Shown: positions 11,836 through 30,326, numbered from the stretch's first letter. The stretch: 30,326 nucleotides of DNA from an uncultured archaeon (GCA_964595665.1 CAZQQS010000006.1:1-30326), one strand, 5' to 3'. Numbers and translations are program-made. The notes: generated by a model from the letters alone, not told the origin.

Positions 11836-11877
11836 GTAAAAGATAACTTTATAAATAATAAAGTAATTCATTATAAC

Positions 11878-11899
11878 ATATACTTTAATTAAAGTATAT
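11878..11899. promoter_or_regulatory. Perfect 22-nt palindrome atatactttaa|ttaaagtatat between genes A and B, followed by cgggcg and ttttt
   Basis: All 11 base pairs checked by hand. It contains the symmetric TATA-like tttaattaaa (11884-11893), centred 22 nt upstream of ATG 11911. It could be an operator, a promoter element or a terminator hairpin plus oligo-T for gene A. Confidence 0.4.
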
Positions 11900-11910
11900 C
11901 GGGCGTTTTT

Positions 11911-14900: not shown

Positions 14901-17900
14901 AATTTCAAATGTAGAAGCAGATTCAAATATGTTAAATAATTTTTTTACGAGTGATACTTTAACTGTTAGTGAAGGAATAGATTCAAATTATATTGATGTT
15001 TCTATAATTAATGTTGATGTAAATGATGATTATATTGAAATTGGGGATTCTATAAATGTTACTTGTGATTTTAATAATCTAAGTACTTTAGATACTAATT
15101 ATGATTTAAATGCAGAAATATTTGTTGTTGATAGTTGGAGTTTAATCGAAAACCATTCAGGAACATTATTAGAAAATACATCCAGTTCTTGGAGTTTTAG
15201 TGCAACAACAGATTCTTTAAGTGCTGGAGATTATAATTTAAGATGTATTATTGATGCTAATGAAGATATTAATTTAAATAATAATTCAGAAATATTGACT
15301 ATTAGTGTTTATGATGTTCCTGGAGAAAATACTTTTGTAGATTTAAATGCATCTTTATCTAGTTCTTCATATGTAACTAAAGGTAATGTTATTGAAATGA
15401 ATTTAACAATTGCAAATGATGGTAATAAAGCAACAGATTCTAATTATATTATTTATTTTTATACTGATAATGAATTGGAAGAATCTTGTACAATTAATAG
15501 GAATAATGTTTTAGCTCCAAATGATGGTGCAGTATTTGGTTGTGAAATTGATTCTAGTGATATTTCTATTGGGGCACATACTTTAAAAGGAGTAGTAAAT
15601 TATCAAGGAGTAGATAATAATTCAGATAATAATTCGTCAGAAACTTTAATTACTGTTCAATATGTTGATTTAAATGTTTCAAATATGCAAATCTCAGATG
15701 ATAATGTTATATCGGGGGAAACCTTTGACATGAATTTTGTTTTAACAAATTCAGGAGATGCTAATACTGATCAAAATTATATTGTGCAATTCTACTTAGA
15801 TTCAAATGAAATTGAATTTTGTTATCAAAATATTAATTCTGTTTTACCAAATGGTAATAATATAGTTTATACTTGTGATAATGTAGATACAACAGGATTA
15901 ACTTTAGGAGATCATAATTTGATAGGTTTAGTAACTTATTTAGGATACGATGTTAATTCAGAAAATAATTCTAATTTATTAAATATATTAATTACAGAAG
16001 CACCGATAACATATGTTGATTTGAATGCTTATTCTTTAGATTCAAATGTTAGTAGTTTATTATATGGCGAATCTTTAGATATTAATTTTGGATATCAAAA
16101 TGTTGGAAATGCAGATGCTAATGCAGATTATAATATTGTTTATTATATTGATTCTGTAGAAAAAGCTAATTATTTAATTTCAGATAATTTGTTATTTAAT
16201 ACTATTGATTATAATTCTTATGTTTGGGCATCTAATATTTTAGGCGATGTAAATGTTTATGTTTGTATAACTTATTCAGAAACAGAATATTTGGAATTGA
16301 ATAATTGTGTACAAGAAACATATCATGTTTATTATAGAGATATTTCTGTTATAAATGCAGAAGTAATTTCAGATGTGATTTATGGTCAAGATTTAAATAT
16401 TTCAGTAGATTTAAATAATTTGGGAGATTTTAACTCAAATGATGTAAATGTTTATGTTTATGTTTTAGATTCTCAAAATTCAGATAATAATTTAATAAAT
16501 CCTGTAAGTATATTAGATTTTGATGCAAATGATAGTTGGAATATAACTTCTAGTTTTAGTAATTTTAATTTAACACTAAATGATTTAAATATTTTAGTTG
16601 AAGTAATAACTACTGAAACAGATTATAATACTGAGAATCATTCGTCAATTTTATTTGGAAATGTTGCACAAATTTATTATAAAGATTTAAATGTTTATAG
16701 TGTAGAATTTGAAGATATTACTCCTGTTTATGGATCTAATGTGAATTTAGATTTGAATATTGAAAATAATGGTAATTTTGATGCAAATGATGTAACTGTT
16801 TTAGTTTATTTTATTGAGAATTCTAATACTGATAATAATTTTTTATATTCTACAATTGAAGACTTTGCTTTTGGAGAAACTACTACTTTAACTATTACTT
16901 GGGAAGATATAAATATTTTAGATGTAATAGATATTTACGTAGAATTGGAAGTATTAAATGATTATAATGAATTAGATAATAATAGATTATTTTCTACAGC
17001 TGCAACTGTTGGCTATGTTGATTTAAACTCATATATTGAAGTTCCAGATGTGAATGCTGGTTATACAATAGATATCAATTGTATAGTAACTAATTTAGGT
17101 AATTTACCAGCCGATAGTTATACTATTTCATATTATCTAAATGGTATTTTACAAGACTCAAATACATTAACAAATTTGTTAGCAACTGAAAGTTATGCTC
17201 AAACATTTTCTTTTAGTTCTAATGTAAAAGTTGATGACCAAAATCTTGGATGTGTTGTTTCTTTTGATAGTGATTTTAATAATTTAAATGATTCTTATTT
17301 TATAGATAGAAATATAGGTGCAGATAGTGATGTTGATTTAAGTATAGAAGCAATAACATTTACGGGTGCATTAAATACTTTGACAGAAAAAATAATAGAT
17401 TGTAATATTGGTAATGTGGGCTCAGAAAATGCTGAGTTAGATTATAATGTTTTGTTTTATGTCAATAATGTTTTAACTGATTTTAATTTAATTTCAGAAG
17501 ATTTAAACATTAATAATTATAATTTAATAAGTTTTTCATGGACTCCTAAAGTTAATGGCACATATACTTTCAAGTGTTTGGTAGATTATAATGTTAATAA
17601 TTATTTAGGATTCGATCAAAATTTAGATAATGATTATTTGACTACTAATGCAACAATTAATTATGTTGCACCAACAAATAATTCTTCATCAAGCGGAGGT
17701 AGTAATATTTCTGGAACTCCCAAAATAAATGCTGGTAATTCTATTACGTTTATTTATAATCCTTTGAATACTTATAGTAATATTTATTTAGATAGTGTTG
17801 ATTTAGAATTGTATTCTGAGTTTTTAATTAGACCTAATTTGAAATTAAACATTTTTCCAAATATTCCTAATTTATATTTAATTTCTAATCCAGATATTAA

Positions 17901-18438
17901 AGTATTAAAATATTTTGAATTTGTATATTCTGGCGAGCAAGATAATTTAAAAAATGTTAAAGTTAATTTTAGTATAAGAAAATCAGAACTAATTGATCCC
18001 ACAAAAATTAAATTGGCAAGATACCATAATTCTCAATGGGTATATTATGATGTTGTTTTTGAGGATATGGGATATTATTACAAATTTACAGCAAACATTC
18101 CTGGGTTTTCATATTTTGCAATTGTAGATTATAATGTTGTAGACGAGGAAATAGAGGTTGTAGTACCTAAAGATGAAAATGTATTTGAGTTGCCTGTAGT
18201 TGATGAGAATAAAGTTATTGTTGAAAATATAAGTATAAAAAAATCTTTCAAACCAACTTATAACCAATTTATAATTGGTTTGGGAATTATAGCGATATTA
18301 ATTTTATTAGTTTTGCTTCTAGTTAATCTACATAAAAAACGAAAAGGTAACAATTATGCTTATAATTTTAAATTAGCTCAAACTGAAAATAAGATTTTGG
18401 AAAAGAAGTTAAAAGAAAAAACAGGTTACGATTTATAA
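11911..18438 (+). CDS. Surface protein B (paralog of A): signal peptide + NosD-like beta-helix + ~11 tandem CARDB-like modules + PGF-pre-PGF-like domain + TM anchor + short cytoplasmic tail
   Basis: 2175 aa. Signal peptide MDYKYLFLIIFGFLFLNLVSA, then INITSCQG..C..LTIDCNFHTISI. Helix cap IGGNLYLDENGN..DYYPL (13714-13857). Eleven ~105-115-aa modules carry the CARDB pattern (x-N-x-G-x..D/N-Y/F-x-V/I-x-F/Y-Y..NN). PGF-pre-PGF-like domain ending IPGFSYFAIV (PGF codons 18100-18108). TM helix at 18268-18330, followed by HKKRKG. The 35-aa tail ends KILEKKLKEKTGYDL. Confidence 0.9.
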   Translation: MDYKYLFLIIFGFLFLNLVSAINITSCQGIDSSYLNESLVLQNDLNESVLADYNACFYLEDDFSGANLTIDCNFHTISITANNVSLDAEISDIFANYWEEETEMDPIIHAFSLDSLTFKNCNFDLEAYVYYDSEDDANYEYGVSVLELSGADGNVYVNEINIIDSNMYVEGQGISFEDFILDSLDMNFYGSYFEPVEVDSEYELDYEPNFIDLENVFLGTLTINDLTDGNFDYINSFVKVTNKLERYDYDSCNIQIDSQTDLNLLILQNVSLDFLNVFDMEYYADVYGICDPITYDDFSVLRDSNFQIIFDNVDINTIGFKYLNLNITEYENLSPISLEPLVLNPGNAFLKLTNNSDINNIFFEASNVNLNAGSLVLLQDNNDLDLIMDLNDLNIFDILVGDTGNANIITSLYSNYNDVTINNLNSEGTKLTILQNIDSNFNYFNVFDSYFDTKAALFFFVEYYDDFLDINFYNSQIIIINNNPISFYDAEGLFSNSIDYLEISNLDLNTDENIFSLNNTTIGELILTDSNIYFNNSYASFGDIDSDSNIQSGSIYNNIFSANFEYVAYADANNLFNVDFNTVLTEDQTKRSAILDDDANYIGGNLYLDENGNNALFEDCTEYLYPGIFDCSLDLGMSTGESIFDYYPLVEYSLNYLPDISVYGYDYLSDFFFNNGNLDFNVFYTNLGNSSTDINIWVYVVKSLEDLNLQKNSPHLKLTSLVTVLPDNNYNSFFRYSVPADVVCMGENCGGPGAGLYSIYILSLLNNELCTLDIDSNCENNYLFEENIFAFYDDGNYLLEIYDIDVNQNVEGNIRVDCNIINIGDINSNLDYNVFLGYGDYNYVSHEYEFEFTQDNISESISAFGSKIVSFNVDVNAEDYNFRCEVADLGYSDGQYIKEFTFNSIDSNSAIDLVAESVDLNSYNVNLGEYIDLNFVYSNLGPDNATDFNLICGVYSNDVFLDNLFNENISESFFGTDYYVVSLVGDMAGSYDFNCYLISNVEADSNMLNNFFTSDTLTVSEGIDSNYIDVSIINVDVNDDYIEIGDSINVTCDFNNLSTLDTNYDLNAEIFVVDSWSLIENHSGTLLENTSSSWSFSATTDSLSAGDYNLRCIIDANEDINLNNNSEILTISVYDVPGENTFVDLNASLSSSSYVTKGNVIEMNLTIANDGNKATDSNYIIYFYTDNELEESCTINRNNVLAPNDGAVFGCEIDSSDISIGAHTLKGVVNYQGVDNNSDNNSSETLITVQYVDLNVSNMQISDDNVISGETFDMNFVLTNSGDANTDQNYIVQFYLDSNEIEFCYQNINSVLPNGNNIVYTCDNVDTTGLTLGDHNLIGLVTYLGYDVNSENNSNLLNILITEAPITYVDLNAYSLDSNVSSLLYGESLDINFGYQNVGNADANADYNIVYYIDSVEKANYLISDNLLFNTIDYNSYVWASNILGDVNVYVCITYSETEYLELNNCVQETYHVYYRDISVINAEVISDVIYGQDLNISVDLNNLGDFNSNDVNVYVYVLDSQNSDNNLINPVSILDFDANDSWNITSSFSNFNLTLNDLNILVEVITTETDYNTENHSSILFGNVAQIYYKDLNVYSVEFEDITPVYGSNVNLDLNIENNGNFDANDVTVLVYFIENSNTDNNFLYSTIEDFAFGETTTLTITWEDINILDVIDIYVELEVLNDYNELDNNRLFSTAATVGYVDLNSYIEVPDVNAGYTIDINCIVTNLGNLPADSYTISYYLNGILQDSNTLTNLLATESYAQTFSFSSNVKVDDQNLGCVVSFDSDFNNLNDSYFIDRNIGADSDVDLSIEAITFTGALNTLTEKIIDCNIGNVGSENAELDYNVLFYVNNVLTDFNLISEDLNINNYNLISFSWTPKVNGTYTFKCLVDYNVNNYLGFDQNLDNDYLTTNATINYVAPTNNSSSSGGSNISGTPKINAGNSITFIYNPLNTYSNIYLDSVDLELYSEFLIRPNLKLNIFPNIPNLYLISNPDIKVLKYFEFVYSGEQDNLKNVKVNFSIRKSELIDPTKIKLARYHNSQWVYYDVVFEDMGYYYKFTANIPGFSYFAIVDYNVVDEEIEVVVPKDENVFELPVVDENKVIVENISIKKSFKPTYNQFIIGLGIIAILILLVLLLVNLHKKRKGNNYAYNFKLAQTENKILEKKLKEKTGYDL
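13879..17664 (+). repeat. Array of ~11 tandem CARDB-like protein modules within gene B (protein-level repeats, ~315-345 nt each)
   Basis: Successive modules start (V/I/K)D(L/I)(N/S).. and contain NLGN/NIGD/NDGN/NSGD/NVGN/NNGN, then D(Y/F)N(V/I)x(F/Y)Y, and end with (D/E)xNxxNN. Examples: IANDGNKATDSNYIIYFY, LTNSGDANTDQNYIVQFY, NIGNVGSENAELDYNVLFYV. Confidence 0.75.
17713..18126 (+). other. PGF-pre-PGF-like domain in protein B
   Basis: ..NVKVNFSIRKSELIDPTKIKLARYHNSQWVYYDVVFEDMGYYYKFTANIPGFSYFAIV matches my memory of the archaeal PGF-pre-PGF domain (F.v.ksw....i.L.ry....W..l.t.......y.a..pGFS.FAi). Confidence 0.55.
18391..18435 (+). other. Conserved extreme C-terminal cytoplasmic motif KILEKKLKEKTGYDL (protein B)
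   Basis: See the A motif. Codon differences are atc/att (Ile), tta/ttg (Leu), aag/aaa (Lys) and ggc/ggt (Gly), with the peptide conserved. Confidence 0.7.
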
Positions 18439-18896: not shown

Positions 18897-18910
18897 TGGT
18901 GAGTGATATT

Positions 18911-19045
18911 ATGGGATTATCTGACTTATACTACAAGTTAGAAGAAAAATATTATGCTAGCTTAGATTGGTTTGATTCGAAAGGATTACACTTTTTTTAT
19001 AATTTTGATGCTTGGTTACAAAGTAAGAATATACCTTCTTTTCCA
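18911..19045 (+). other. Conserved cytoplasmic N-terminal peptide of protein C (MGLSDLYYKLEEKYYASLDWFDSKGLHFF..IPSF)
   Basis: Aligns with the D N-terminus: MGL.D.YY.LE.KYY..LD..D..GLH.....D......IPSF, immediately before the single TM helix. Confidence 0.7.
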
Positions 19046-22000
19046 ATAATGACTTTGTTATTGTTGATTTTTATTGCTGTTGTTGTTTTGGTAATATTAT
19101 ATTTCTTAGGTGTTTTAGGTACATCTATGACTGTTAATTTACAATTAGTTAACTCTAAAGACAACTACACTATGGCAAACATATCATTTATGGTAAATGA
19201 TAGTGTTAAAAGTGAATCTTATGTTACTGATAGTTCTGGTGAAGCTAAAGTAAAAGTTCGTAAAAATATCCCATTTTACGTAACAATTAACTCATCTGAA
19301 TATATTTTAGAAAATTCTGAATTTACTGCTTATGAAAGTAATGAATTAATTAAAGTTTACTTAAAGAGCTCATCAGCTTTATTAAGTTCTAAAGTTTTAA
19401 AGATCTTTGAGAATTTTGATTCTGGAATTTTGTTTTCTGAAGCAATAAGCGTAAATTTAACTTGTACTGGTAATTCAAACTATAACGAAACTATAGAAAT
19501 ATTGTCTGGTGTTAGAGATTTAAGCGATTTGCCAGAAGATTGTGGTAATTTAGAAGTAAGTGTAGATGAATACAATTATTCTAAAAGTTATAACTTAGCT
19601 AATCATGAATTTGAAGTTGCAGTAGATATTGCAGTTCCTAAAGGAACTATTATAATTAATGTATTAAATAACAGTTTAGAGCCAATTTCTAATGTTCAAG
19701 TTACTGCTTATTCTAATAATGTTCGTTATGCAGAAAGTTTAACTTCTGAAAGTGGAGTTGTTCAATTTGAATTAGATGCTGTAAGAGATTATACATTTAC
19801 TTTGAATCATTTGGGTCAAGATTATTCTACTTTAGTTACTTCTAATATGGAATCTGAATGTAATGGAAAAGTTTTAAAAAACGAAACTAAAACTTGTTCT
19901 TTAACTATGTTGGCAACAAATATTGGAAAAATTAACTTAGAAATATATGATGTTTCTGGTAAACCAATAACTAATGCTACAATTAAAGTATTGAAAAACA
20001 ATGTAGAACATTATAATTATAACTTAACGGCTGGAGATGCTGGAAAATTCATTTTTGGTGTGCCAGAATTAAGTCCATATAGAATAGTTATTGATTCTTT
20101 TGCATATATGATTTTTGATAAAGAAATTATGCCTTCTAATACTCCTACAAAAATTAATTTGGAGCCTGTATTAGATTCTCCTGTATTAAATGTTTTAGTT
20201 TTAGCTAATGGAGATCCAGTAGCAAAAGCAAATGTTCAATTGTATAAAGAGAATAATTTGATTTTAACTAAAGTAACTGGTGCCGATGGTATTGCTTATT
20301 TTGATAGATTAGAAAAAGATGTGCCTTATAGTGTTAAGGTATTAAAAAGTGATTACTCTCAAAGTTCTGAACCTTTGATTTTAAATCCAAGAATAGAAAA
20401 TACAATTACTGTTAATATGGTTGTTGGAAAAGGTAATGTAAATGTTTATGGTTATAATAAACAAGGTGTTGCTTTAGATGGTTTAACTGCTGAAATTTAT
20501 GATGTTTATACTAATAGAAAATTAGGTGAAGCACAATTAAAAGAAGGTTTGGCAACAATTTATGGTGTAAGTGCTGATAAAACAGTTTATGCTAAATTAG
20601 TTTCTGATTCAGGAGTAGGTTATTCTTTAGTTTCAGATATTAAAGCAAATTTCAATTCTGATTTAATAGTATATTTTAGTGATTATTCTAATAATTTTAC
20701 AATGGAAAATATTGGTATATTTAATTTAGATGGTTCATCAGTTTATACTGTGCCTTACCAAGTTGTAGAAAATAATGAATATTATGGTTTATTTTTATTA
20801 AATGTTCCAAAAGGTGCATTTAATGAATCTGAAATTTTATTTGTTGGTGGAATAGATTTAGAAAATGCAAATATTTTAATTAAAGATGCAAAAATGTTGA
20901 ATGCGAAATTAGAAAAAGGTTTGACTTATACTTCACCTTTAGGTTTTGCAGAAGATATGTTGAATAAAACTCAAGACGATGGTATTTGGGCTCAATTAAA
21001 AGCATCTAATTTAAACCCTGGAACTTATATCGTAAAAGTAAATTTTATTATTGACTCAGATCCTAAATCTCAATTATTTAATTTAGGTTATAGAGCTAGT
21101 TTGAAATCTGGTGGAACATACTTAAGATATCCTATAGATAATGTTTTGGGCCAAAATGAAAGTGCATCTAATAAATTAGGATTTTATTCTGAATTAGCTA
21201 AAAATGTAAACTTTAGAATTGGAAGTTTAAATTGTGTAAATTCTGGTTGTATAGAAATGACTGCTCAAGATGCACAAGGAAATAGAACTAAAGTTTATGA
21301 TGAATTATATTCTGTTTATAATTTGTCTACTGATTTAACTTTTAAAATAATTTCTGCACAAAAAACAACTTACAATGATTTAGTTTTTGAGATTGCATCT
21401 TTGAATAATGGATTAGATATTTCTAATGTTAATTTAAGATCTAATTCTAATAATTTAATAGTTCAAAAAACTACTAATAAATATACTACTAAATTAAATG
21501 AATTCGGACCAAATGTAGAATTAAATGGAAATATTAATTTTGCAGCAAATAAATCTGGAACTAATATTTTGAAAATAACTATTTATAATAATAAAAATGA
21601 AGAAATATTTACAAAAGAGATTGCTGTGACTGTAGATGCTCCAAAAGATTTGAGAGTAGAATATTTGCCAGCATTAATTGTGCCTTATGTAAATAATTTA
21701 GGTGCTGTATTTGTAAGCGATGCTTTAGATTCAACTCCTGTAGAAGCACATGTTAGTGCATATTTAAACGATGTTTTAATTGGTTCTGGAGTTACAGATT
21801 TTGAAGGTAAAATTCCTTTAGAAATAACTAAACCAAGTTCTGGAGATTCTTTAAAATTAAAAGCTACTGCTCCAGGATATAATGCTATAGAATCTGAATT
21901 AAAAATAACTGAGAATATTTTAATTGCTGATGTTCCTGAAATTACATATAATATTAATATTGATGAATTAGATTATTTAGTAAAGAATATTACTTTTACA

Positions 22001-25000
22001 ACTCCTTTACCAAATAAATTAAAAATACAAAGAATTAGTTTTACTAATAATGAATTTAATAAATTCTTAGAAGTTAAACATAATTTAAGAGCAAATTATG
22101 AATTTGAAAAAACTTTGAGTTTAGAGTTATCTGCAAAATTAACTACTGATGGAAAGAATTTATTAGAGCCAAAAACAATTAATACTTTTTTAGATTTGGT
22201 TGTAACATCTAATGAAATTAATGAAGTTTGGAATGTAAAAGTACCCGTTACTTTCTACATCCAATTATATGATTCTTTAGATAGTGTTGATTGTTTGAAA
22301 TTAGAGGTTTCTAATGATGATTTATCTGCAGAAGAATATGGTTTTAAATTAATTAATACTTGTACTTACAATGAAGTTGCTACTGAATTGTATAATGTTA
22401 AAACTTTTGTTGAATGGTCAGAAAATAAATTAGGTGAATTTGAATATGATAAAAAGATAATTGATTCTGAAGGTATGGATTTATTTGAATCTATTTCTAA
22501 GAGCACAAGTTATTCTTTATTATTCAAACCAAGTTCTAAAATATCTTCAGGAAAATCAAAAGCAAATTTTATAGTAAAAGCATATTATAGAACTAATTCA
22601 GGATTGCAAGAATTAGTTGTAAATAAAGAATTAGATATTATTTATAGTAAATTAAGTAATTGTTTAAAAATTACTACATCTGATGGTACTTTAATTAATC
22701 CTTCTGGTGTAAATAACCCTATTGTTGTTGGAGTAAGTCCATTTGGTATGGGTATGAATGCAATGAATGGTTTATATGGCAATTCTTATAATCCTTATTT
22801 AACAAATTCTTATGGTTCTGCAAATATTGTGCCAAATAGTGCAAGTAATTTATGGGATCAATTATCTTCAACATCAAATACTCAAGGTAATTTTAGTACT
22901 GCTGCAAATTTAGCAAGTTTAAATAGTAATTCTGGTGTTGGTTCAAATAATGTTCAACAAATGATGTTAATGTTACAAATGATGGGTGGGAGTTATGGTG
23001 GAATGAATCCCCAAATGTATTTGGCTCCTACAAGTAATTTAACTATTACTAATACTTGTGCTTACGATGTGGATGTTCAAGTTGGGGCTGCTGCTCAAAT
23101 TATGGTTAGTCCAAATTCATCTACAATTACTATTGGAAGTAATTCTCAAGTAACGGTAACTGCAAATAGTTTGCCTGGAATTTATAATTTAAATATTTTA
23201 GCAGGTTATAATGGAAATTTAAATCCGTTTGCTGTTTTACCAATAAATGTAATTGATTATGCTTCTGAAACAGTTCAAGATGATTGTTTTAAAATTGAAG
23301 GTGAACCAACATTAGATATGAGTTCGTTTACAAAAAATTATAAACAATTAAAAATTTACAATTATTGTTTTTCAAAAGGAGTTGTGTTTGATGATGCAAA
23401 TCCTATAGAATTAAATGCTTTATTTGCTGCTGAAGATTTAGTTATGAAAGACAAAGATGGAAAAGATGTTAAAGTTTTAGATAAAGGACAAAAATATGCT
23501 GAATTAAAAATAATTAAAAGTCCACAAATAGAAACAAGTAATACTTATGGTAAATATCAATATATAGAATTATTAATTTTGAAAAATTCTGCAATACAAG
23601 AAGTTAGTTTTAATAATTATGCTGGTACAAATACTTTGAGTGATACAGCTCAATCTTTAAGTGTTTTAAGAAGTGCTGCAACAGCATTAAATCAAAATGT
23701 GAACTTTAAAGCATTAGTTACAATTAATTCAAGAATTGGTTATGGTATGACTGCTCAAAAGAAAGCTGTTGTAAAAACATTAACAATAAGAGATTTATGG
23801 AATTTATTGGCTTTGGCTGGTGCTGGAGAATTAGATGCTGGAAATAGAACTTGTACTCCTAATAAATGGAGTTCATTTATTGATGATGATATTTCTTACA
23901 GTGTAAAATATTCTCAAATAAAAGATAGAATTCCATTAAATAATGAGAGTTGGGATTTATTAGATAAAGATTGTTTTGGATCATATGATAATGTTAAATT
24001 TAAAGACGATTATTTAGAACAAACTTCTAATGGAATAACTGTTAAATTAACTCCTCATTTCAAAGATAGAAAATTGTATTTTGATATTGATGTTAAAGGT
24101 TCTGGAGATAAATTTGAATCTACATATGATTTTGGTTATACTTTGCAATCATATTGGCATAGTGAAACACCTTTGCAAAAAAGAGATAGAACTTTGAAAT
24201 TCATTTTAACAATTACAGATGTTACTGCTGGAGACCCTGCTAAAGATCCAACTGCAGATGCAAAAACTCAAAATACAAAAGATGAATTTTGTATTGATAA
24301 GTTTGGTAATGAATGGAAATCTTTGAGTACTTATGGTTTTGGTTCTTTAGAAGGATTTAATAATGGAAATATGTTAAGTTTTGATTATAGAACTACTGTT
24401 ACTCCAGATTGTACAAAAACATTTTGTGATGCAGAACAATTAAAGAAATATTTGAAAGGTAAATTTACTACTTCTTTGTCAACTAATATTGTTTATGAAA
24501 CTTATTTGTCTCAAAAATATGTTGTTAAAAATGCAACTGATAAGAATGTAATTGAATTGTTGCCTTCAAAAGTATTGGATAAAGTTTCAATGTATTTCTT
24601 AGAAAAATATTTAGCTGAAGCAATTGCTGATACGGCTATTGAAACAACTGGATTTGATAAGTTTAAAAACTTGGTTAAAGAAATGCCAAATTTATTTTTA
24701 GTTACTACTAGTGGATGTTATACTGGAACTACAGCTTATGGTTTTACTGTAGTTGGTTCAAATAAATGTTATTATAATGCACAAAAAATGTCTCAAGATG
24801 CTTCAGGACAAACATATATGAAAGATATTTTTAAAGGTGCTTTTGACGTAGTATTCTTAGTTCCTGAAACTAAATGGATGTTAATAGGTTTTAATCAAGC
24901 TTGGAATGTAAAAGTTGAAACAGTTTATTTGAAACCTGATAATTATAAAATGTATTTTGAAGGAAGTAATTTCTTAAGTTATGATGCTAATGTATTTGGT

Positions 25001-25519
25001 GTTGAAGTGAAGAATCCTGGAATATATTTAATACAAATGGATTTAAATGCTGGGAAAGAAGTTTTGAGAATTCAACCTGCTGAATATTTTATAGATCAAA
25101 CTTATAAGGCAAATACTATAGACAGATTCTTTTATAGTTTGCCAATAGATCCTACAAGAGATGGATTTGTTGGAACTTATAATGGACAATTTGGTTTATG
25201 TACTAAAGCAAATGCTATGGATGTTTTAAGCTTCCCACAAATAAATACTTGTTTAAGTACTAATAAAAATGTAAATAAATTAACTTTCGCAAGTCAAAAT
25301 TATTTGGAAATTAATTATACAAATTACGATTATATTGTAAATTTCCCAAGTGCTTGTAAAAACAATAGTACTTGTGAAATAAATGGAAATAATAGTTTTA
25401 AAGTTACTGCTCCTAAAAACGCATATACTTTAGAAAACATATTCAATACTCCTCAAAATTATTGTTATTCTGAAAGTAATAATATTGTTAAGGTAGTTTA
25501 TTCTGGTGAACAAAGGTGA
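18911..25519 (+). CDS. Giant N-terminally anchored surface protein C: conserved cytoplasmic N-peptide + TM + ~6 CarboxypepD_reg-like modules + orphan domains + low-complexity linker + Cys-rich C-terminal region
   Basis: The track start is a TTG at 18896. I prefer ATG 18911 because the product then begins MGLSDLYYKLEEKYY, matching the SD-defined start MGLRDFYYSLENKYY of the downstream paralog. 2202 aa. TM helix at ~19046-19120 (IMTLLLLIFIAVVVLVILYFLGVLG). Repeated modules of the type ..ANVQLYKENNLILTKVTGADGIAYFDRLEKDVPYSVKVLKSDY.. It ends with TGA (25517-25519), the only non-TAA stop in the window. Confidence 0.85.
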   Translation: MGLSDLYYKLEEKYYASLDWFDSKGLHFFYNFDAWLQSKNIPSFPIMTLLLLIFIAVVVLVILYFLGVLGTSMTVNLQLVNSKDNYTMANISFMVNDSVKSESYVTDSSGEAKVKVRKNIPFYVTINSSEYILENSEFTAYESNELIKVYLKSSSALLSSKVLKIFENFDSGILFSEAISVNLTCTGNSNYNETIEILSGVRDLSDLPEDCGNLEVSVDEYNYSKSYNLANHEFEVAVDIAVPKGTIIINVLNNSLEPISNVQVTAYSNNVRYAESLTSESGVVQFELDAVRDYTFTLNHLGQDYSTLVTSNMESECNGKVLKNETKTCSLTMLATNIGKINLEIYDVSGKPITNATIKVLKNNVEHYNYNLTAGDAGKFIFGVPELSPYRIVIDSFAYMIFDKEIMPSNTPTKINLEPVLDSPVLNVLVLANGDPVAKANVQLYKENNLILTKVTGADGIAYFDRLEKDVPYSVKVLKSDYSQSSEPLILNPRIENTITVNMVVGKGNVNVYGYNKQGVALDGLTAEIYDVYTNRKLGEAQLKEGLATIYGVSADKTVYAKLVSDSGVGYSLVSDIKANFNSDLIVYFSDYSNNFTMENIGIFNLDGSSVYTVPYQVVENNEYYGLFLLNVPKGAFNESEILFVGGIDLENANILIKDAKMLNAKLEKGLTYTSPLGFAEDMLNKTQDDGIWAQLKASNLNPGTYIVKVNFIIDSDPKSQLFNLGYRASLKSGGTYLRYPIDNVLGQNESASNKLGFYSELAKNVNFRIGSLNCVNSGCIEMTAQDAQGNRTKVYDELYSVYNLSTDLTFKIISAQKTTYNDLVFEIASLNNGLDISNVNLRSNSNNLIVQKTTNKYTTKLNEFGPNVELNGNINFAANKSGTNILKITIYNNKNEEIFTKEIAVTVDAPKDLRVEYLPALIVPYVNNLGAVFVSDALDSTPVEAHVSAYLNDVLIGSGVTDFEGKIPLEITKPSSGDSLKLKATAPGYNAIESELKITENILIADVPEITYNINIDELDYLVKNITFTTPLPNKLKIQRISFTNNEFNKFLEVKHNLRANYEFEKTLSLELSAKLTTDGKNLLEPKTINTFLDLVVTSNEINEVWNVKVPVTFYIQLYDSLDSVDCLKLEVSNDDLSAEEYGFKLINTCTYNEVATELYNVKTFVEWSENKLGEFEYDKKIIDSEGMDLFESISKSTSYSLLFKPSSKISSGKSKANFIVKAYYRTNSGLQELVVNKELDIIYSKLSNCLKITTSDGTLINPSGVNNPIVVGVSPFGMGMNAMNGLYGNSYNPYLTNSYGSANIVPNSASNLWDQLSSTSNTQGNFSTAANLASLNSNSGVGSNNVQQMMLMLQMMGGSYGGMNPQMYLAPTSNLTITNTCAYDVDVQVGAAAQIMVSPNSSTITIGSNSQVTVTANSLPGIYNLNILAGYNGNLNPFAVLPINVIDYASETVQDDCFKIEGEPTLDMSSFTKNYKQLKIYNYCFSKGVVFDDANPIELNALFAAEDLVMKDKDGKDVKVLDKGQKYAELKIIKSPQIETSNTYGKYQYIELLILKNSAIQEVSFNNYAGTNTLSDTAQSLSVLRSAATALNQNVNFKALVTINSRIGYGMTAQKKAVVKTLTIRDLWNLLALAGAGELDAGNRTCTPNKWSSFIDDDISYSVKYSQIKDRIPLNNESWDLLDKDCFGSYDNVKFKDDYLEQTSNGITVKLTPHFKDRKLYFDIDVKGSGDKFESTYDFGYTLQSYWHSETPLQKRDRTLKFILTITDVTAGDPAKDPTADAKTQNTKDEFCIDKFGNEWKSLSTYGFGSLEGFNNGNMLSFDYRTTVTPDCTKTFCDAEQLKKYLKGKFTTSLSTNIVYETYLSQKYVVKNATDKNVIELLPSKVLDKVSMYFLEKYLAEAIADTAIETTGFDKFKNLVKEMPNLFLVTTSGCYTGTTAYGFTVVGSNKCYYNAQKMSQDASGQTYMKDIFKGAFDVVFLVPETKWMLIGFNQAWNVKVETVYLKPDNYKMYFEGSNFLSYDANVFGVEVKNPGIYLIQMDLNAGKEVLRIQPAEYFIDQTYKANTIDRFFYSLPIDPTRDGFVGTYNGQFGLCTKANAMDVLSFPQINTCLSTNKNVNKLTFASQNYLEINYTNYDYIVNFPSACKNNSTCEINGNNSFKVTAPKNAYTLENIFNTPQNYCYSESNNIVKVVYSGEQR
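25514..25519 (+). promoter_or_regulatory. Shine-Dalgarno AGGTGA for gene D, containing the TGA stop of gene C
   Basis: AGGTGA lies 5 nt before ATG 25525. Its last three bases are the stop codon of C. Confidence 0.65.
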
Positions 25520-25524
25520 ATTAA

Positions 25525-25650
25525 ATGGGATTGAGAGATTTTTATTATAGTTTGGAAAACAAATATTATGGTTTGTTAGATAAATTAGACAAATCAGGAT
25601 TACATGTTTACAAGGTTGTAGATAAAGTAGATAAAGTAATACCTTCTTTT
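25525..25650 (+). other. Conserved cytoplasmic N-terminal peptide of protein D (MGLRDFYYSLENKYYGLLDKLDKSGLHVY..IPSF)
   Basis: See the C motif. It is far better conserved than the ectodomains that follow. Confidence 0.7.
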
Positions 25651-28600
25651 GTTTTGGTAATAATTTTATTTGGTTTAATTATTGCTGGAATAATTATAGG
25701 ATTATTATCTGTTTTTAATATTGGTTTCCCAAATGATCCCATTACTTTTGTGTTCACAGATAAGCATGGTGAAAATTTCTCTAATCAAGTAGTATCTTAT
25801 TCTTTCAATGGAGAGAATCGAGGTTTTTTAGAAACTGATGCTTTAGGAGTAATTTATTTTGATAGTGCAAAAAGTGGAGATGTTTTTGCATTTGAGATCC
25901 CAAAAGGCAATTCTGTTGAAACAATAACTAGAACTATAACTAAAGATAGGTTATATAATATTAAGTTGAATTTTTCTTTGGCTCAAGATAGTGTAAATTT
26001 TACAGTAAATTCTATTGATAATTTAGCATTGAAACCAATTAATATTTACTTTGTTTGTGCTAATGCAAATGCAGTTGTGCCTGAGAGTAGAATTAATTCT
26101 ATAGATAGTACTTATAATATTTCTTTTGATTCTGATTGTGGGGTTTTGAGTGCAAATATAAAATCTAATTATTATGAGGAGGCATATCAAGAAATTTATT
26201 CTGGAGTTAATATAAATTTAAGACCTAATGATTATTCTGGAAATATGCAAATTACTGTAAATATTTATGATGAATCTAATTTGCCTATAGCTGGAGATGC
26301 AAGTGTAAATATATCTCAAAATGGAATTCCTATTAAATATGGTAATAGAGTTTCTGAAAGTGTTTATACTTTTACTGGATTAAGTGCTGCAACTTATGTT
26401 GTAAATGTTACTAAAAGTGGTTATGCTTCACAAAATCAAACTGTTGTTTTAGATGGTTCATCAACTACTCAAAATATTTCTATGTATTTGAAAAAGACTT
26501 CTGGATTAGGAAATTTTGTTTTAAAAATTGTAGGTATTGATGGTAAAGCAATTAAAGATGTTGCGGTAATTGTAAAATCACAAGATGAATCTGGAAATCA
26601 AAAAGAGATTGTAAGTCAAGGTAAAACAGATGCTTCTGGAAATATTGATTTAGATGTGCCAGACATTTCTCAAAAATATTGGATATTGGCTAGTAAAACT
26701 GGTTATACTTCTTTGAGTAGATCTAATGTATCTATATCTGAAACTCAATTAACTTTGGTTATGAGAAAAACTAATGAAGCTAATTTATTAAGAGTTAAAA
26801 TTTTTGATGAATTTGGTTTTGCAGTAAATAATGCAAATGTTGCTTTGATGGATGCAAATGATAATGTAATTGCGCCATATTTTGGTGTGACAGATTTTAA
26901 TGGTATTGCTAAGAATTCTGCTGAAAATGGAACTTATAAAGTATATGTTTACAAAGGTTCGTTTAGTGGAATGAGTGAATTATTTTCATATGATTCGGAT
27001 GCTTTAAATGCAAATGAATATGTAATTGTAAATTTGAGCTTGCCAAAAGCTGGTTGGGATATTACTTTAAAGGATTCTTTTGGTTTGCCTGTGCCTAATG
27101 CTTTGATAACTTTATATGATGCTTACAATTATGAGCCAATAGAAATTGGTAATAGATATGCTTCTCCTGAAGGTACATTATCTATACAAAATTTAAGAGT
27201 GGATAGAAAATATTTTATTGTTGCGAGTGCAAATAGTTTTGAAAATTATATTTCAAAATCTAAGTTTTTAACTGCAAATGGTTTAGCAGTAGATAATTTT
27301 GTAATGGAAAAACAAAAAATAGATTCTAGAATTAAAGTTGAATCTATTGGAACTTATGATTTAGAAAATAATAAAGTGTATAAATTAGCTTCAAATACTG
27401 AATATGTTTCTCGATTTAAGATTACTTTGCCAGAAGGCGAAATAAATTATGAAGATTTATTTGCAAACTTTGTTTTAGGTTCATTAGATGCTGTTGAAAA
27501 AGAACCAATATATATTAAAAAAGTAGAATATAGTGGAAATGCAAACTTAATGAAAGGTAGAAATTATTCTGAGAATAATATTGAAAAAAGTATTGGAGAT
27601 ACAAAAAGTTTTGATAATGTAATTTATGATGGTTCTCCATTCCAAGATCAAATTAAATGGGTTCAATTAACTTGGGATTTAGAAAGTCATAATATTGACT
27701 CAGGAATATTATTTGTTGATGTTTATATGCAAGTAAGAGCTGGAGTTCAAGATGGTGTAAAATCTGATTTATCATTTAATATTTTAGCTAAAGAAGATGA
27801 ATATTATTCTAGTCCTGAGAATTTATCTTCTGAAGAAAGTAATAGTGGTTTATTTGCTCCAAAAAATAAAATCTTTTTCGTTGTTGGAGAAGGCCAACAA
27901 GTATGTGATGATTTATTTTGTTTTGAAGGTTCATATTTAGATTTGACTGATGATTTAAAAAGTTCTGTAATGGGTGAATTACCTTATGTTGCTAAATTAG
28001 GTAGAGATTATGTTTTAAATTTTAATTTAGTAAATAATAGGGATGTTCCATTAACTAATTATAGAGTTATTATAGAGAATCCACAAAAAAGTTTAGAAAT
28101 GGATTCGGGCATAATTTATTCTGCAAATAATTTGGAATTTAATAAACCAGAACCAATAAAATTTGCAGATAACTTTAGTTTTACTTTTAGAGATGTTGCT
28201 ACATTAAATCAAAATGGTGCAATAAAAGGAGAAATTAATTTTATACCTATTGCTGAAGGTTCAAATTCATTTAAAATAACTGTAATTGAAGATAGAGAAA
28301 TAATTTATACAAAAGAATTTTATGTGAGTGTAGTTTCAAATAAAGAAATATTTGTTGAGATTATTCCCGAGATTTTGCCTTCATATGTTGATACAAATAT
28401 TAAATTTATTGTAAAAGATTTTGATAATAATGCTTATTTAGAAGATGCATTTGTAAGAATAGTAAATATTTATGATTCAGAATTAGCTTCTGGAAGTACA
28501 AATGAATTTGGAGAAGTTGTTTTAGAAATTGTAGGACAAAATCCAAATACTGATTTGTATATGAAAGTTTATAAAGAAGAATATAGAGCTTTTGAAAAAG

Positions 28601-30326
28601 TATTAAGAACTAGTGATAAATTTATTACTATTGATCCAGAAGAATTAAGTGTAAAAGCTAATGTTTTTGAGATGAAAGGTCAAGGAGTATTGAATTTAAA
28701 AAATACTTCTCGATTACCTGTTGTAATTGAATCAATTGTAGTAGAAGGTAATTTTGATGAGTATGTAAATGTATTAGAAACAAATAATTATTTAGAAAAT
28801 AGTAGTAAAGATTTAGTAATGGATAAAGAACATAGTTATGAAGTTCCAGTAAATGTTTCTTTAACTACAATTGCATCATATTTGAAAGAAAGTACAGAAT
28901 ATGAGGGCAAAGTAATTATTACTGTAAAACCAAAAGATTTATTAGGAGATCAAACTATAAGATCATGGACTTATGAAGTTCCGTTAAAATTATTTATTTC
29001 TTTAGGTAAAGGTTTAGATAATTTAGATTGTTTAGGTTTAGATAAAACTAAATCTGAAATAGTTTCTAATAATGGTAAGAATGATAGTGATTCTTTAACT
29101 GTTGTAAATGGTTGTACTGTTGATGGTGTTCCTGTAAAGATAAGAAATTTAGAAGCTAAGATTACTTGGAAAGGTAATGCTTTAGGTGCATTTACTTTTG
29201 TTAAGAATGAAATTTCTTCAAGAATTCAAAGTGCATATTATGTAACTTTATTAACTACAATGTTAAATCACGAAGAATCAATGTTTGTATTGAATTTTAA
29301 TCCAGCTACTGGAAGAGTTGCTGGAACTAATACTGCAGAAATAGAATTAAGAGCAAGTTATTTCACAGATAATGGTATTGAATTTGTTACTGCAAAAACA
29401 GAATATAGTGTAAGTGTAGTAGATATGAAATCTTGTATAACTTATGATTTGCCTGATGCAGAAGTAGATTTAATTAAGATTCCAAGAGATTCTACTGGTG
29501 AATTTAAAATCAGAAATGATTGTGAGGCTGGATTTTCAGTATTATTAACAGATTTGCCAAAGGACTTTTTAGATGTTACTCCTAAAGAATTTGATTTACC
29601 TGCACAAAGTGAAGTATTGGTAAAAATAAATCCTAATAATTCTAATGTTGGTGTTTATTTATTAGAAGTAAGAGGTAAAACTTCTAAAGAAAGTTTTAAT
29701 GGTGTAAGAGTTGGTTCTGAGGCATTAAGAGTATTTGTTGCTCCATTGGAAACAGATTGTTTGGTACTGGATAATTATGAATTTAATTTAGGTAAAAGCG
29801 ATGAGAATAGATATGCTTATTTGATTAACAGATGTTATTACAAAGATTTACAAGCTTTGTATAATATTGATGTTACTCATGGTGGTTTAGGTTTATCTGG
29901 TGAATGTGCTAGTCAAAACTGGCAAGGTGTTGTTTTAGGTTCTTTAGCTGGTGGTGTTGCTTCTGCAACTGCTGGTATTGCTTATGGTAATGTTTTAGGA
30001 AGTATTGGTGGCGATCCTTTTAAAGCTGCTAAAGCAGAATCTGATTTATTAGCCAAAGTAGGTATTACTAAAAAAAGTGGTAAATTTTATGATTCTGAAG
30101 GTGCTGAAATGAATCTAGAACAAGTAAATTATGCCCTATCTGAAATTAAAGATAATACTATGGGTTATAATAAAGATGGTAAATTAGTTGCCGGTCCCGC
30201 AGTTACCACTCCAACTGCTCCTGCTCCTGCTCCTGCTCCTGCTGCTCCTGCTGCTGTTCCTGCTGCTGCTCCTGCTGCTCCTGCTGCTGCTCCTGCTGCT
30301 GCTCCTGCTGCTGCTCCTGCTGCTGC
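25525..30326 (+). CDS. Giant N-terminally anchored surface protein D (paralog of C), 3'-partial: runs off the window end
   Basis: Not in the supplied ORF track because it has no stop. I translated frame 1 from ATG 25525 by hand; every 60-nt line starts a codon, and I found no in-frame stop through 30326 (>=1600 codons). AGGTGA SD at 25514-25519, 5 nt before the ATG. It begins MGLRDFYYSLENKYYGLLDKLDKSGLHVYKVVDKVDKVIPSF, then a TM helix (VLVIILFGLIIAGIIIGLLSVF), ~6 CarboxypepD_reg-like modules (e.g. VAVIVKSQDESGNQKEIVSQGKTDASGNIDLDVPDISQKYWILASKTGY), regions collinear with C, a Gly-rich hydrophobic segment, and a Pro/Ala repeat at the window end. Confidence 0.85.
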   Translation, partial: MGLRDFYYSLENKYYGLLDKLDKSGLHVYKVVDKVDKVIPSFVLVIILFGLIIAGIIIGLLSVFNIGFPNDPITFVFTDKHGENFSNQVVSYSFNGENRGFLETDALGVIYFDSAKSGDVFAFEIPKGNSVETITRTITKDRLYNIKLNFSLAQDSVNFTVNSIDNLALKPINIYFVCANANAVVPESRINSIDSTYNISFDSDCGVLSANIKSNYYEEAYQEIYSGVNINLRPNDYSGNMQITVNIYDESNLPIAGDASVNISQNGIPIKYGNRVSESVYTFTGLSAATYVVNVTKSGYASQNQTVVLDGSSTTQNISMYLKKTSGLGNFVLKIVGIDGKAIKDVAVIVKSQDESGNQKEIVSQGKTDASGNIDLDVPDISQKYWILASKTGYTSLSRSNVSISETQLTLVMRKTNEANLLRVKIFDEFGFAVNNANVALMDANDNVIAPYFGVTDFNGIAKNSAENGTYKVYVYKGSFSGMSELFSYDSDALNANEYVIVNLSLPKAGWDITLKDSFGLPVPNALITLYDAYNYEPIEIGNRYASPEGTLSIQNLRVDRKYFIVASANSFENYISKSKFLTANGLAVDNFVMEKQKIDSRIKVESIGTYDLENNKVYKLASNTEYVSRFKITLPEGEINYEDLFANFVLGSLDAVEKEPIYIKKVEYSGNANLMKGRNYSENNIEKSIGDTKSFDNVIYDGSPFQDQIKWVQLTWDLESHNIDSGILFVDVYMQVRAGVQDGVKSDLSFNILAKEDEYYSSPENLSSEESNSGLFAPKNKIFFVVGEGQQVCDDLFCFEGSYLDLTDDLKSSVMGELPYVAKLGRDYVLNFNLVNNRDVPLTNYRVIIENPQKSLEMDSGIIYSANNLEFNKPEPIKFADNFSFTFRDVATLNQNGAIKGEINFIPIAEGSNSFKITVIEDREIIYTKEFYVSVVSNKEIFVEIIPEILPSYVDTNIKFIVKDFDNNAYLEDAFVRIVNIYDSELASGSTNEFGEVVLEIVGQNPNTDLYMKVYKEEYRAFEKVLRTSDKFITIDPEELSVKANVFEMKGQGVLNLKNTSRLPVVIESIVVEGNFDEYVNVLETNNYLENSSKDLVMDKEHSYEVPVNVSLTTIASYLKESTEYEGKVIITVKPKDLLGDQTIRSWTYEVPLKLFISLGKGLDNLDCLGLDKTKSEIVSNNGKNDSDSLTVVNGCTVDGVPVKIRNLEAKITWKGNALGAFTFVKNEISSRIQSAYYVTLLTTMLNHEESMFVLNFNPATGRVAGTNTAEIELRASYFTDNGIEFVTAKTEYSVSVVDMKSCITYDLPDAEVDLIKIPRDSTGEFKIRNDCEAGFSVLLTDLPKDFLDVTPKEFDLPAQSEVLVKINPNNSNVGVYLLEVRGKTSKESFNGVRVGSEALRVFVAPLETDCLVLDNYEFNLGKSDENRYAYLINRCYYKDLQALYNIDVTHGGLGLSGECASQNWQGVVLGSLAGGVASATAGIAYGNVLGSIGGDPFKAAKAESDLLAKVGITKKSGKFYDSEGAEMNLEQVNYALSEIKDNTMGYNKDGKLVAGPAVTTPTAPAPAPAPAAPAAVPAAAPAAPAAAPAAAPAAAPAA
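30217..30326 (+). repeat. GC-rich cct/gct tandem repeat encoding a Pro/Ala linker (APAPAPAPAAPAAVPAAAPAAPAAAPAAAPAAAPAA...), truncated by the window end
   Basis: From 30217 to the window end, every complete codon is cct or gct except one gtt. The unit drifts from cct-gct to cct-gct-gct-gct. Confidence 0.9.

Follow-up and report, generated by a model that had tools for sequence, protein, structure and literature searches.

Giant surface proteins have been noted before among the DPANN archaea. "Candidatus Forterrea multitransposorum," a member of the Diapherotrites, encodes several membrane-anchored proteins of >1,800 amino acids (aa) in a cluster that takes up 42 kbp, or 5% of its genome (Probst & Banfield 2018, PMC5905446), and a role in cell-cell interaction was proposed for these clustered large proteins (PMC5905446). 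The SPEARE proteins of Nanohaloarchaeota, giant DPANN proteins with protease, adhesion, and restriction endonuclease domains, have been proposed to act in host interaction (Hamm et al. 2019, PMC6642349). Here, we analyzed a 30,326-bp stretch of DNA from an uncultured archaeon (an entire NCBI contig of 21 to 30% G+C, hereafter the window), in which two adjacent genes, C and D, encode giant proteins. We conclude that these belong to a real, conserved, and essentially uncharacterized family of giant beta-sandwich surface proteins, and we think it somewhat probable that C and D are co-expressed, N-terminally anchored stalk-and-head proteins that act together in cell or surface contact or in envelope structure. 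The two genes and their translation signals are the following:

18898..18902, plus strand: GGTGA, a Shine-Dalgarno (SD)-like motif 8 nucleotides (nt) 5' of the ATG of C (read from the sequence)
18911..25519, plus strand: gene C, a C-type giant surface protein of 2202 aa with a TGA stop (open reading frame [ORF] call)
25514..25519, plus strand: AGGTGA, the SD of D, the final three bases of which are the TGA stop of C (read from the sequence)
25525..30326, plus strand: gene D, a D-type giant of >1600 aa that runs off the contig end with no in-frame stop (ORF call)

The Forterrea cluster resembles C and D in phylum, in the giant size and membrane anchorage of its proteins, and in their clustering, five proteins being likened here by description. 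The published remark, however, is a single sentence without the family, paralogy, N-terminal peptide (N-peptide), head domain, or synteny that the present work defines. Apart from it we found nothing in the literature on this family. The term "undescribed" used in the initial annotation of the window needs qualification, as clustered giants in a Diapherotrite had already been noted by Probst & Banfield. No SPEARE-type domain (serine protease or restriction endonuclease) was found in C or D with Pfam at E ≤ 0.1.

Bacterial giant adhesins (invasin/intimin with Big_1, SdrD with B-repeats, the prealbumin-like SpaA/CnaB, and the LapA/SiiE type) likewise combine a long Ig- or transthyretin-like stalk with a distal functional domain. 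They are retained by LPXTG motifs, beta-barrels, or type I secretion systems (T1SS), whereas C and D are predicted to use an N-terminal transmembrane (TM) helix preceded by a cytoplasmic peptide; their repeats are near identical and variable, whereas C and D have diverged modules in a set number; and C and D are archaeal, with a head fold that has no match. Neither RTX nonapeptide repeats nor a T1SS signal were matched in C or D by Pfam or NCBIfam, and the organism, an archaeon, has no outer membrane.

Archaeal S-layer pairs (SlaA/SlaB) and the putative DPANN S-layer proteins NEQ300, Micr_00292, and MJ1_0160 are, like C and D, co-transcribed, Ig-rich surface proteins, and they form the outermost layer. 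DPANN S-layer proteins also have no sequence homology to known families (10.1101/2023.10.27.564410). Compared with these pairs, C and D are about twice as large, are both N-anchored, and occur as two to four paralogs; no sequence similarity was detected between the two groups, and we do not infer lattice formation for C and D.

Paralogy and shared architecture of C and D

Sequence comparison identifies C and D as genuine full-length paralogs. By BLASTP, residues 210-1252 of C aligned with residues 204-1305 of D at 22.5% identity over 1142 aa (E 1e-28, 116 bits), whereas 30 shuffles of C versus D reached at most 32 bits; the similarity thus extends well beyond the N-peptide. The initial annotation had proposed six numbered points at which the two proteins align. 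In a MAFFT alignment of 12 sequences, covering both paralog types and five genomes, each C/D motif pair of points 1 to 5 fell in the same columns. Point 6, a Gly-rich segment and linker thought to be collinear as well, had to be abandoned, because these segments sit at different places relative to conserved Cys residues and are therefore not positionally homologous: the low-complexity segment of C (aa 1270-1370) is an insertion between Cys1251 and Cys1383, the D counterparts of which (1304 and 1333) are just 29 aa apart, and the Gly-rich segment of D (aa 1449-1498) lies ~120 residues downstream of that pair.

Iterated searches with a hidden Markov model (HMM) found six CarboxypepD_reg-like modules at matching positions in the two proteins (C, 80-152, 251-333, 345-418, 429-504, 515-588, and 935-1025; D, 77-150, 247-321, 335-414, 426-504, 515-595, and 963-1044), and the same module number and positions in the orthologs of AR10, a relative with a complete genome. 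The modules of C and D show no variation in repeat number, unlike what free-standing adhesins usually show. CarboxypepD_reg (PF13620; 54.8 bits in C and 61.8 bits in D, against a gathering cutoff of 32.3) was the sole family above the Pfam threshold, which bears out the early impression that no other family was recognizable; weak Pfam similarity to Big_1, SdrD_B, and SpaA was also seen. Searches of NCBIfam with C, D, and the head protein E (introduced below) gave no matches, PDB sequence searches with C, D, and family profiles gave nothing meaningful, and a profile of the middle orphan region built from 11 family members matched nothing in PDB or Pfam. The orphan regions could thus be assigned to known families by none of the Pfam, NCBIfam, PDB, or Foldseek searches. 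Collinear module order is accompanied in C and D by Cys pairs that vary little or not at all in either paralog type (185/211, 775/780, 1128/1151, 1251/1383, and 1459/1486 in C numbering) and are consistent with extracellular disulfides. The parts of C, from the N terminus onward, are as follows:

18911..19045, plus strand: N-peptide, aa 1-45, MGLSDLYYKLEEKYY...KNIPSFP, a family-wide conserved module predicted to be cytoplasmic
19046..19120, plus strand: signal-anchor TM helix, aa 46-70, Kyte-Doolittle peak 3.3, the sole strongly hydrophobic segment
19148..20674, plus strand: proximal stalk, aa 80-588, with five CarboxypepD_reg-like modules and the Cys185/Cys211 module (Pfam, HMM map)
20675..21712, plus strand: middle orphan region, aa 589-934, with the invariant Cys775/Cys780 (alignment)
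21713..22717, plus strand: aa 935-1269, with the sixth CarboxypepD_reg-like module (935-1025), more conserved modules, and Cys1128/Cys1151; includes alignment points 3-5
22718..23020, plus strand: Gly/Asn/Met/Gln-rich low-complexity insertion, aa 1270-1370, between Cys1251 and Cys1383
23018..24220, plus strand: distal beta-sandwich array, aa 1370-1770, with one helical insertion (AlphaFold2 model m167c1a00009a)
24269..25516, plus strand: head, aa 1787-2202, a Cys-rich alpha/beta domain (AlphaFold2 model md80bdd972aec)
24422..24442, plus strand: hallmark motif FCDAEQL, aa 1838-1844 (general form [FY]CD[AGS]xQ[FL])

D follows the same plan as far as the contig reaches, its Cys pairs within aa 596-1448 being 794/799, 1169/1197, 1304/1333, and 1412/1437:

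25525..25650, plus strand: N-peptide, aa 1-42, MGLRDFYYSLENKYY...KVIPSF, the family-wide conserved module
25651..25722, plus strand: signal-anchor TM helix, aa 43-66, Kyte-Doolittle peak 3.3
25753..27309, plus strand: proximal stalk, aa 77-595, with CarboxypepD_reg-like modules and the Cys178/Cys205 module, collinear with C (Pfam, HMM map)
27310..29868, plus strand: aa 596-1448, with the middle orphan region, the sixth CarboxypepD_reg-like module (963-1044), and distal modules
29869..30018, plus strand: Gly-rich, moderately hydrophobic "glycine-zipper-like" segment, aa 1449-1498 (≥25% Gly in a 40-aa window, Kyte-Doolittle peak 1.55)
30193..30326, plus strand: Pro/Ala-rich linker, coded by a tandem DNA repeat at the contig end (TRF)

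The N-peptide is the best-conserved part of these proteins, with 51% identity between C and D against 21% overall. Its pattern, MGLK[DE]xYxxLE[DE]KYY...IPSF[PA] followed at once by one TM helix, was found in C, D, and all full-length relatives inspected, and the alignment shows an a/d-type spacing of Leu, Tyr, Phe, and Trp in its first helix. Kyte-Doolittle scans gave one strongly hydrophobic segment per protein, just after the N-peptide, and none at the C terminus, so that C has no C-terminal TM helix. A profile search of the protein collection with the N-peptide returned just contig-end fragments of 58 to 95 aa. Conserved extensions before the export segment are known from autotransporters and TpsA proteins (ESPR) and from Gram-positive giants (YSIRK and KxYKxGKxW), where they suggest targeting or pacing of export. 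The N-peptide of C and D is, by analogy, reminiscent of the ESPR and YSIRK extensions on giant exported proteins; it has no sequence similarity to them, its extension is ~45 aa long, and the hydrophobic segment behind it resembles an uncleaved anchor (25 aa, no AxA site).

AlphaFold2 modeled residues 1370-2202 of C (pLDDT 68, from an alignment of 10 sequences) as a beta-sandwich array of ~400 residues followed by the head. The initial ~125 aa of the array are common to the whole family, and its top PDB matches by Foldseek were tandem ASH/PapD-like, cadherin, integrin, and PrgB Ig arrays. Together, a single N-terminal TM helix, a long beta-sandwich region, and a distal alpha/beta head, all of them predicted, agree with the membrane-anchored stalk-and-head architecture put forward in the initial annotation.

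Conservation of the gene pair across the phylum

The nearest titled relatives of D are from metagenome-assembled genomes (MAGs) labeled "Candidatus Diapherotrites archaeon" (44 to 48% identity), and remoter ones are labeled "Candidatus Iainarchaeum"; by these relatives the source organism is assigned to the Iainarchaeota (formerly Diapherotrites), a DPANN phylum. The family is rare. About 25 homologs of C, of 2200 to 2700 aa, were found in a set of 5.8 billion proteins, and a profile of its C-terminal 833 aa retrieved merely 69 cluster representatives among 1.84 billion. A scan of GTDB species genomes seeded with a single protein gave no relatives, whereas an alignment-based scan found 135 in 74 loci, nearly all of them from Iainarchaeota/Diapherotrites, including the complete genome of AR10. 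Three relatives of D are on contigs assigned to MAGs of Falkowbacteria, Chloroflexi, and Saccharibacteria (L020, L034, and L065) and are probably binning contaminants, as the distribution is otherwise exclusively iainarchaeal. Here and below, L numbers denote loci of relatives (L007 being that of AR10) and _G numbers the giants within a locus; the window's clade comprises the window, L001, L009, and L082.

Reciprocal BLAST identified orthologs of C in L001 (66% identity), L002_G1, L009, L003_G2, L005_G2, and AR10 (L007_G1), and of D in L001 (69% identity), L002_G2, L009, L003_G3, L005_G3, and AR10 (L007_G2). Aspartyl-tRNA synthetase (AspRS) is 88% identical between the window and L001, against 66 to 69% for C and D, and this faster evolution of the giants fits surface exposure. 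When all ORFs of the 74 loci were classified, a C-type gene was followed by a D-type gene in at least 26, that of AR10 among them, so that the synteny of the pair, which the initial annotation had put forward for checking, is conserved across Iainarchaeota. This phylum-wide synteny argues for a core role.

In most relatives the C-D pair lies within a cluster of three or four giants and a pilin-like gene (PIL), in the recurrent order PIL, C-type, a membrane protein of 150 to 170 aa (~15 loci), D-type, and a third, D-like giant. A metagenome scan seeded with PIL added a further giant, G0, directly 5' of PIL; it is 2460 to 2900 aa long and has the same N-peptide. The AR10 cluster comes to ~10,850 aa, encoded in ~32 kb of a 1.24-Mb genome (~2.6%). 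PIL proteins (400 to 620 aa) have a type IV pilin-like N terminus, [KR][GA]F[TN]LFTAL (KGFTLFTALV), and a weak match to the ComGF N terminus, with no Pfam family match. Just 5' of G0, at least five loci encode a protein of 164 to 237 aa from the exosortase/archaeosortase family (TIGR04178, 33 to 45 bits against a cutoff of 23; below every subfamily cutoff). Examples are located as follows:

PIL, between G0 and C: L003, 8101-9894; L007, 355-1827; L097, 9989-11461
Archaeosortase-like genes: L083, 1459-1953; L084, 82-651; L085, 374-1087; L104, 134-826; L003/L004, 1-528

No C-terminal sorting signal was found on any cluster protein; an archaeosortase substrate signal of the PGF-CTERM type (motif, TM helix, basic cluster) is absent from the C terminus of C and from the giants and PIL of its relatives. 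The class III pilin signal (basic N terminus, [KR][GA], and an F/Q-T/S-L helix) fits PIL of the relatives, a protein that the window lacks; the N termini of C and D do not fit it.

Translation of C and D

The ATG of D (25525) lies 5 nt past the stop of C, and that stop lies inside the AGGTGA SD (25514-25519), just as the initial annotation had described. Its further statement that the stop of C is the only TGA in the window applies to stop codons, since all nine other complete ORFs of ≥80 aa that we checked end in TAA; as a triplet, TGA occurs 677 times on the plus strand. The layout of stop, SD, and start is identical in L001, the nearest relative. In L082 an additional A turns the C stop into a TAA abutting the ATG, with AGGTGA retained, and elsewhere the junction has GGTGGA with a 13-nt gap (L009) or AGGTG with a 20-nt gap (L002), for a C-D gap of 0 to 20 nt across these four loci. 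The selected element, judging from the persistence of AGGTGA in relatives although the stop shifts, is the SD of an internal cistron, and the lone TGA stop is a by-product. SD-dependent initiation at internal cistrons of archaeal operons is established. Within the window, a GGTGA-type SD precedes 3 of 11 genes only (AspRS, C, and D); the remaining eight have an AT-rich, TATA-like sequence near the start codon and appear leaderless. Recoding or readthrough of the TGA to join C to D was considered and rejected: the two starts are 6614 nt apart, which is not a multiple of 3 and places the genes in different frames, and L082 retains AGGTGA although its C gene stops at TAA.

The head domain and the split of D-type genes

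Modeled alone by AlphaFold2, the last 416 residues of C gave a confident alpha/beta domain (pLDDT 75, pTM 0.75), the fold of which had no significant Foldseek match (best E 0.09 in PDB and 0.26 in BFVD); profiles of the C head and of the E-type head matched nothing in PDB, Pfam, or NCBIfam. Aligned with the family-wide head by hhalign (E 5e-5, probability 67%, 289 columns), the C head shares the collinear motifs YLKPDNYK, PGxYxV, and FYxLPxDP and probably represents a diverged form of that head. The hallmark [FY]CD[AGS]xQ[FL] is present in 64 of the 81 long proteins examined, among them both paralog types plus E; it was observed in C itself and, for the lineage of D, in E of L001, L009, and L082. 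Its Cys is invariant, with Gln four residues on, and in many members it is the only Cys in the vicinity. The model puts the hallmark Asp at the start of a helix, for which a helix capping box would be the ordinary explanation; the motif could conceivably support reactive Cys-Gln chemistry instead.

In L001, L009, and L082, the D ortholog is 1581 to 1758 aa long (1758 aa in L001) and is followed by a gene of its own for a protein of 827 to 843 aa, E:

Gene E: L001, 18381-20900; L009, 12499-14988; L082, 7346-9829

E has its own signal-peptide-like N terminus and a Gly-rich start, and over its final ~450 to 500 residues it is homologous to the head at the C terminus of unsplit D-type giants (L003_G3, E 2e-37), as well as to residues 2177-2591 of the 2603-aa ortholog in L011. 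Going by these matches, the D-type gene is split in the window's clade into D and the head gene E. By comparison with these relatives, the contig probably lacks the whole of E and ~160 to 180 codons of D, which would follow past its end. It stops within the tandem repeat of the D linker (period 33 nt, 3.3 copies, 30215-30324 by TRF; GC-rich beyond the norm of the genome), and this repeat probably broke the assembly and truncated D.

Glycine-zipper-like stretches such as GGLAGSWIGGPMGMVLGGLGGAVGNIIGLA recur between stalk and head in D-type giants, with Kyte-Doolittle peaks of 1.3 to 1.7 that are borderline for membrane insertion. The stretch is far longer in the unsplit ortholog of L011 (gene at 10001-17812), where it spans aa ~1441-1890, and is also found in E of L001 (aa 29-157). 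Such segments may act either as a flexible hinge or as a membrane-active segment.

Possible roles of the giant proteins

In the reading that we prefer, each giant would begin with a cytoplasmic N-peptide of ~45 aa, an amphipathic helix with many Tyr and acidic residues that ends in IPSF[PA], and would pass through a single signal-anchor TM helix into a long extracellular stalk, its beta-sandwich modules braced by disulfides and fixed in collinear order, then a flexible low-complexity or Gly-rich segment, and finally a distal Cys-rich alpha/beta head bearing the [FY]CDAxQ hallmark. Because its SD overlaps the stop of C, D would be translated from the same mRNA and in linked amounts, with its head supplied as the separate protein E in the window's clade. 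The paralogs and, where present, the other giants of the cluster would constitute one surface apparatus, possibly via their N-peptides or TM helices, in the form of a long spike or fibre layer that contacts other cells or surfaces or of an outer envelope. That the paralogs act together is suggested by the one-to-one orthology, gene order, and shared N-peptide kept across the phylum, and the fixed module count together with that orthology favors a structural, cooperative apparatus over a freely evolving adhesin repertoire. C and D may co-assemble into a heteromer, perhaps in fixed stoichiometry, with a putative role in contact or adhesion and possibly in host attachment.

Several observations weigh against this reading. 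The N-in/C-out topology is predicted from hydropathy and Cys pairs alone, and N-glycosylation sequons are not enriched (observed/expected, 0.89 and 1.09). The similarity of the C head to the family head is weak (an hhalign probability of just 67%), and hmmsearch with the family head profile against C was not significant. Of the translational coupling proposed in the initial annotation, what stands is the tight C-D linkage and an SD/stop layout kept in the closest relatives, to which it is confined; other relatives are looser, with C and D 11 to 100 nt apart or a small membrane-protein gene between them. Finally, PIL, G0, and the third giant are not adjacent to C and D in the window's clade, so that a fixed multi-giant complex is not universal.

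It is rather unlikely that C and D are independent diverged adhesins with different ligand specificities, co-transcribed for convenience and forming no complex. Their heads are strongly diverged, the giants evolve quickly, the nearest stalk folds are adhesion-type Ig arrays (cadherin, integrin, PrgB, and PapD-like), and the window's clade has just C and D(+E) side by side; yet paralog identity, order, and module number are fixed phylum-wide, which is unusual for freely evolving repertoires, and conservation is far stronger in the cytoplasmic N-peptide than in the ectodomain, a pattern suggestive of a common partner or of interaction between the two proteins. Were the giants instead the main envelope layer, a structural coat akin to an S-layer canopy or glycocalyx, their phylum-wide conservation and large genome share (~32 kb of ~1.2 Mb in AR10) would be expected, as would Ig-like modules like those of archaeal S-layer proteins (10.1101/2023.10.27.564410), and the window has no recognised S-layer gene. 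Known archaeal S-layer proteins, however, are usually anchored C-terminally or via a partner such as SlaB, are smaller, and do not come as sets of three or four giant paralogs, and the lack of sequon enrichment tells against a coat as well; we regard this explanation as decidedly improbable.

A direct tie to the pilin-like and archaeosortase-like genes, with the giants as cargo or components of that system (at the tip or base of a filament, or as processed, lipid-attached proteins), appears very unlikely. The position of PIL between G0 and C in most loci, with its weak ComGF match, and the TIGR04178-family gene just 5' of G0 in at least five loci do point that way, but neither gene adjoins C and D in the window or its closest relatives, AR10 has no sortase neighbor, and the surroundings showed neither a pilus ATPase nor a PilC gene; as to sequence signals, a C-terminal tripartite sorting signal is missing from the giants and PIL, and a class III [KR]G-F cleavage motif from the N termini of the giants. 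An alpha-2-macroglobulin (A2M)-like protease trap is extremely improbable and effectively refuted: matches to bMG3 at E ~6e-6 in C and D, with faint MG4 and bMG3 matches in relatives, are below threshold (26.5 and 26.0 bits against a gathering score of 34.9) and overlap the CarboxypepD_reg modules, and C and D have no CxEQ thioester motif and no TED or A2M Pfam match. A viral or tail-fibre origin was likewise rejected, PHROGs giving one match (E 0.0014, function unknown) and the best Foldseek match in BFVD having an E of 0.26.

A further reading would unite the giants (G0, C, D/E, and the third giant), PIL, and, where present, the small archaeosortase in one heteromeric, Iainarchaeota-specific surface machine, in which the cytoplasmic N-peptides would bundle the subunits at the membrane, and the glycine-zipper-like segments and the head, with its unmatched fold and invariant Cys-Asp-Ala-x-Gln, would engage another cell and perhaps even insert into its envelope or join it covalently. 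We consider this quite unlikely; if true, it would give archaea a hitherto undescribed type of device for intercellular contact or bridging.

Genomic surroundings in the window

Directly 5' of C and D lie two further giants, A and B, which are paralogous to each other (E 3e-18) and have no relation to C and D. Both have a Sec-type signal peptide, CARDB domains, a C-terminal TM anchor, and a common tail, ...KTGYDL; B also has a PGF-pre-PGF domain (TIGR04213, 35.9 bits), which is in neither C nor D. The four giant envelope proteins A to D occupy ~22.5 kb of the 30-kb contig. A B-like CARDB giant precedes C in L001 as in the window, and L009 and L082 have no upstream sequence context. The 974-aa ORF at the contig start had no Pfam or NCBIfam match, and its exact sequence was not found in the protein collection. 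The genes 5' of C are the following:

34-2958: ORF of 974 aa, in a frame open to the contig start, so that the true start is perhaps further 5'
7846-18438: giants A (1329 aa) and B (2175 aa)
Also 5' of C: genes for a CNNM/CBS transporter, two small membrane proteins, a CxxCxxCC protein, and AspRS
Also 5' of C, minus strand: DUF192 gene

Implications for Iainarchaeota

The family as defined here carries recognizable marks, namely, the N-peptide, the invariant Cys pairs, the [FY]CDAxQ head motif, and pilin-like or sortase-like neighbors, which offer targets for metaproteomics, cryo-electron tomography (cryo-ET), and structural work, and it brings to light two uncharacterized modules, an N-terminal anchor module and a head without a detectable known fold. 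The lifestyle of Diapherotrites is debated, both free-living and symbiotic modes having been argued (PMC5905446, PMC10936187). For all the tiny size of DPANN genomes, this lineage spends ~11 kb on C and D, and AR10 ~32 kb on the wider cluster; the fixed paralogs and their fixed order across the phylum suggest something central to the way these cells engage with what surrounds them.

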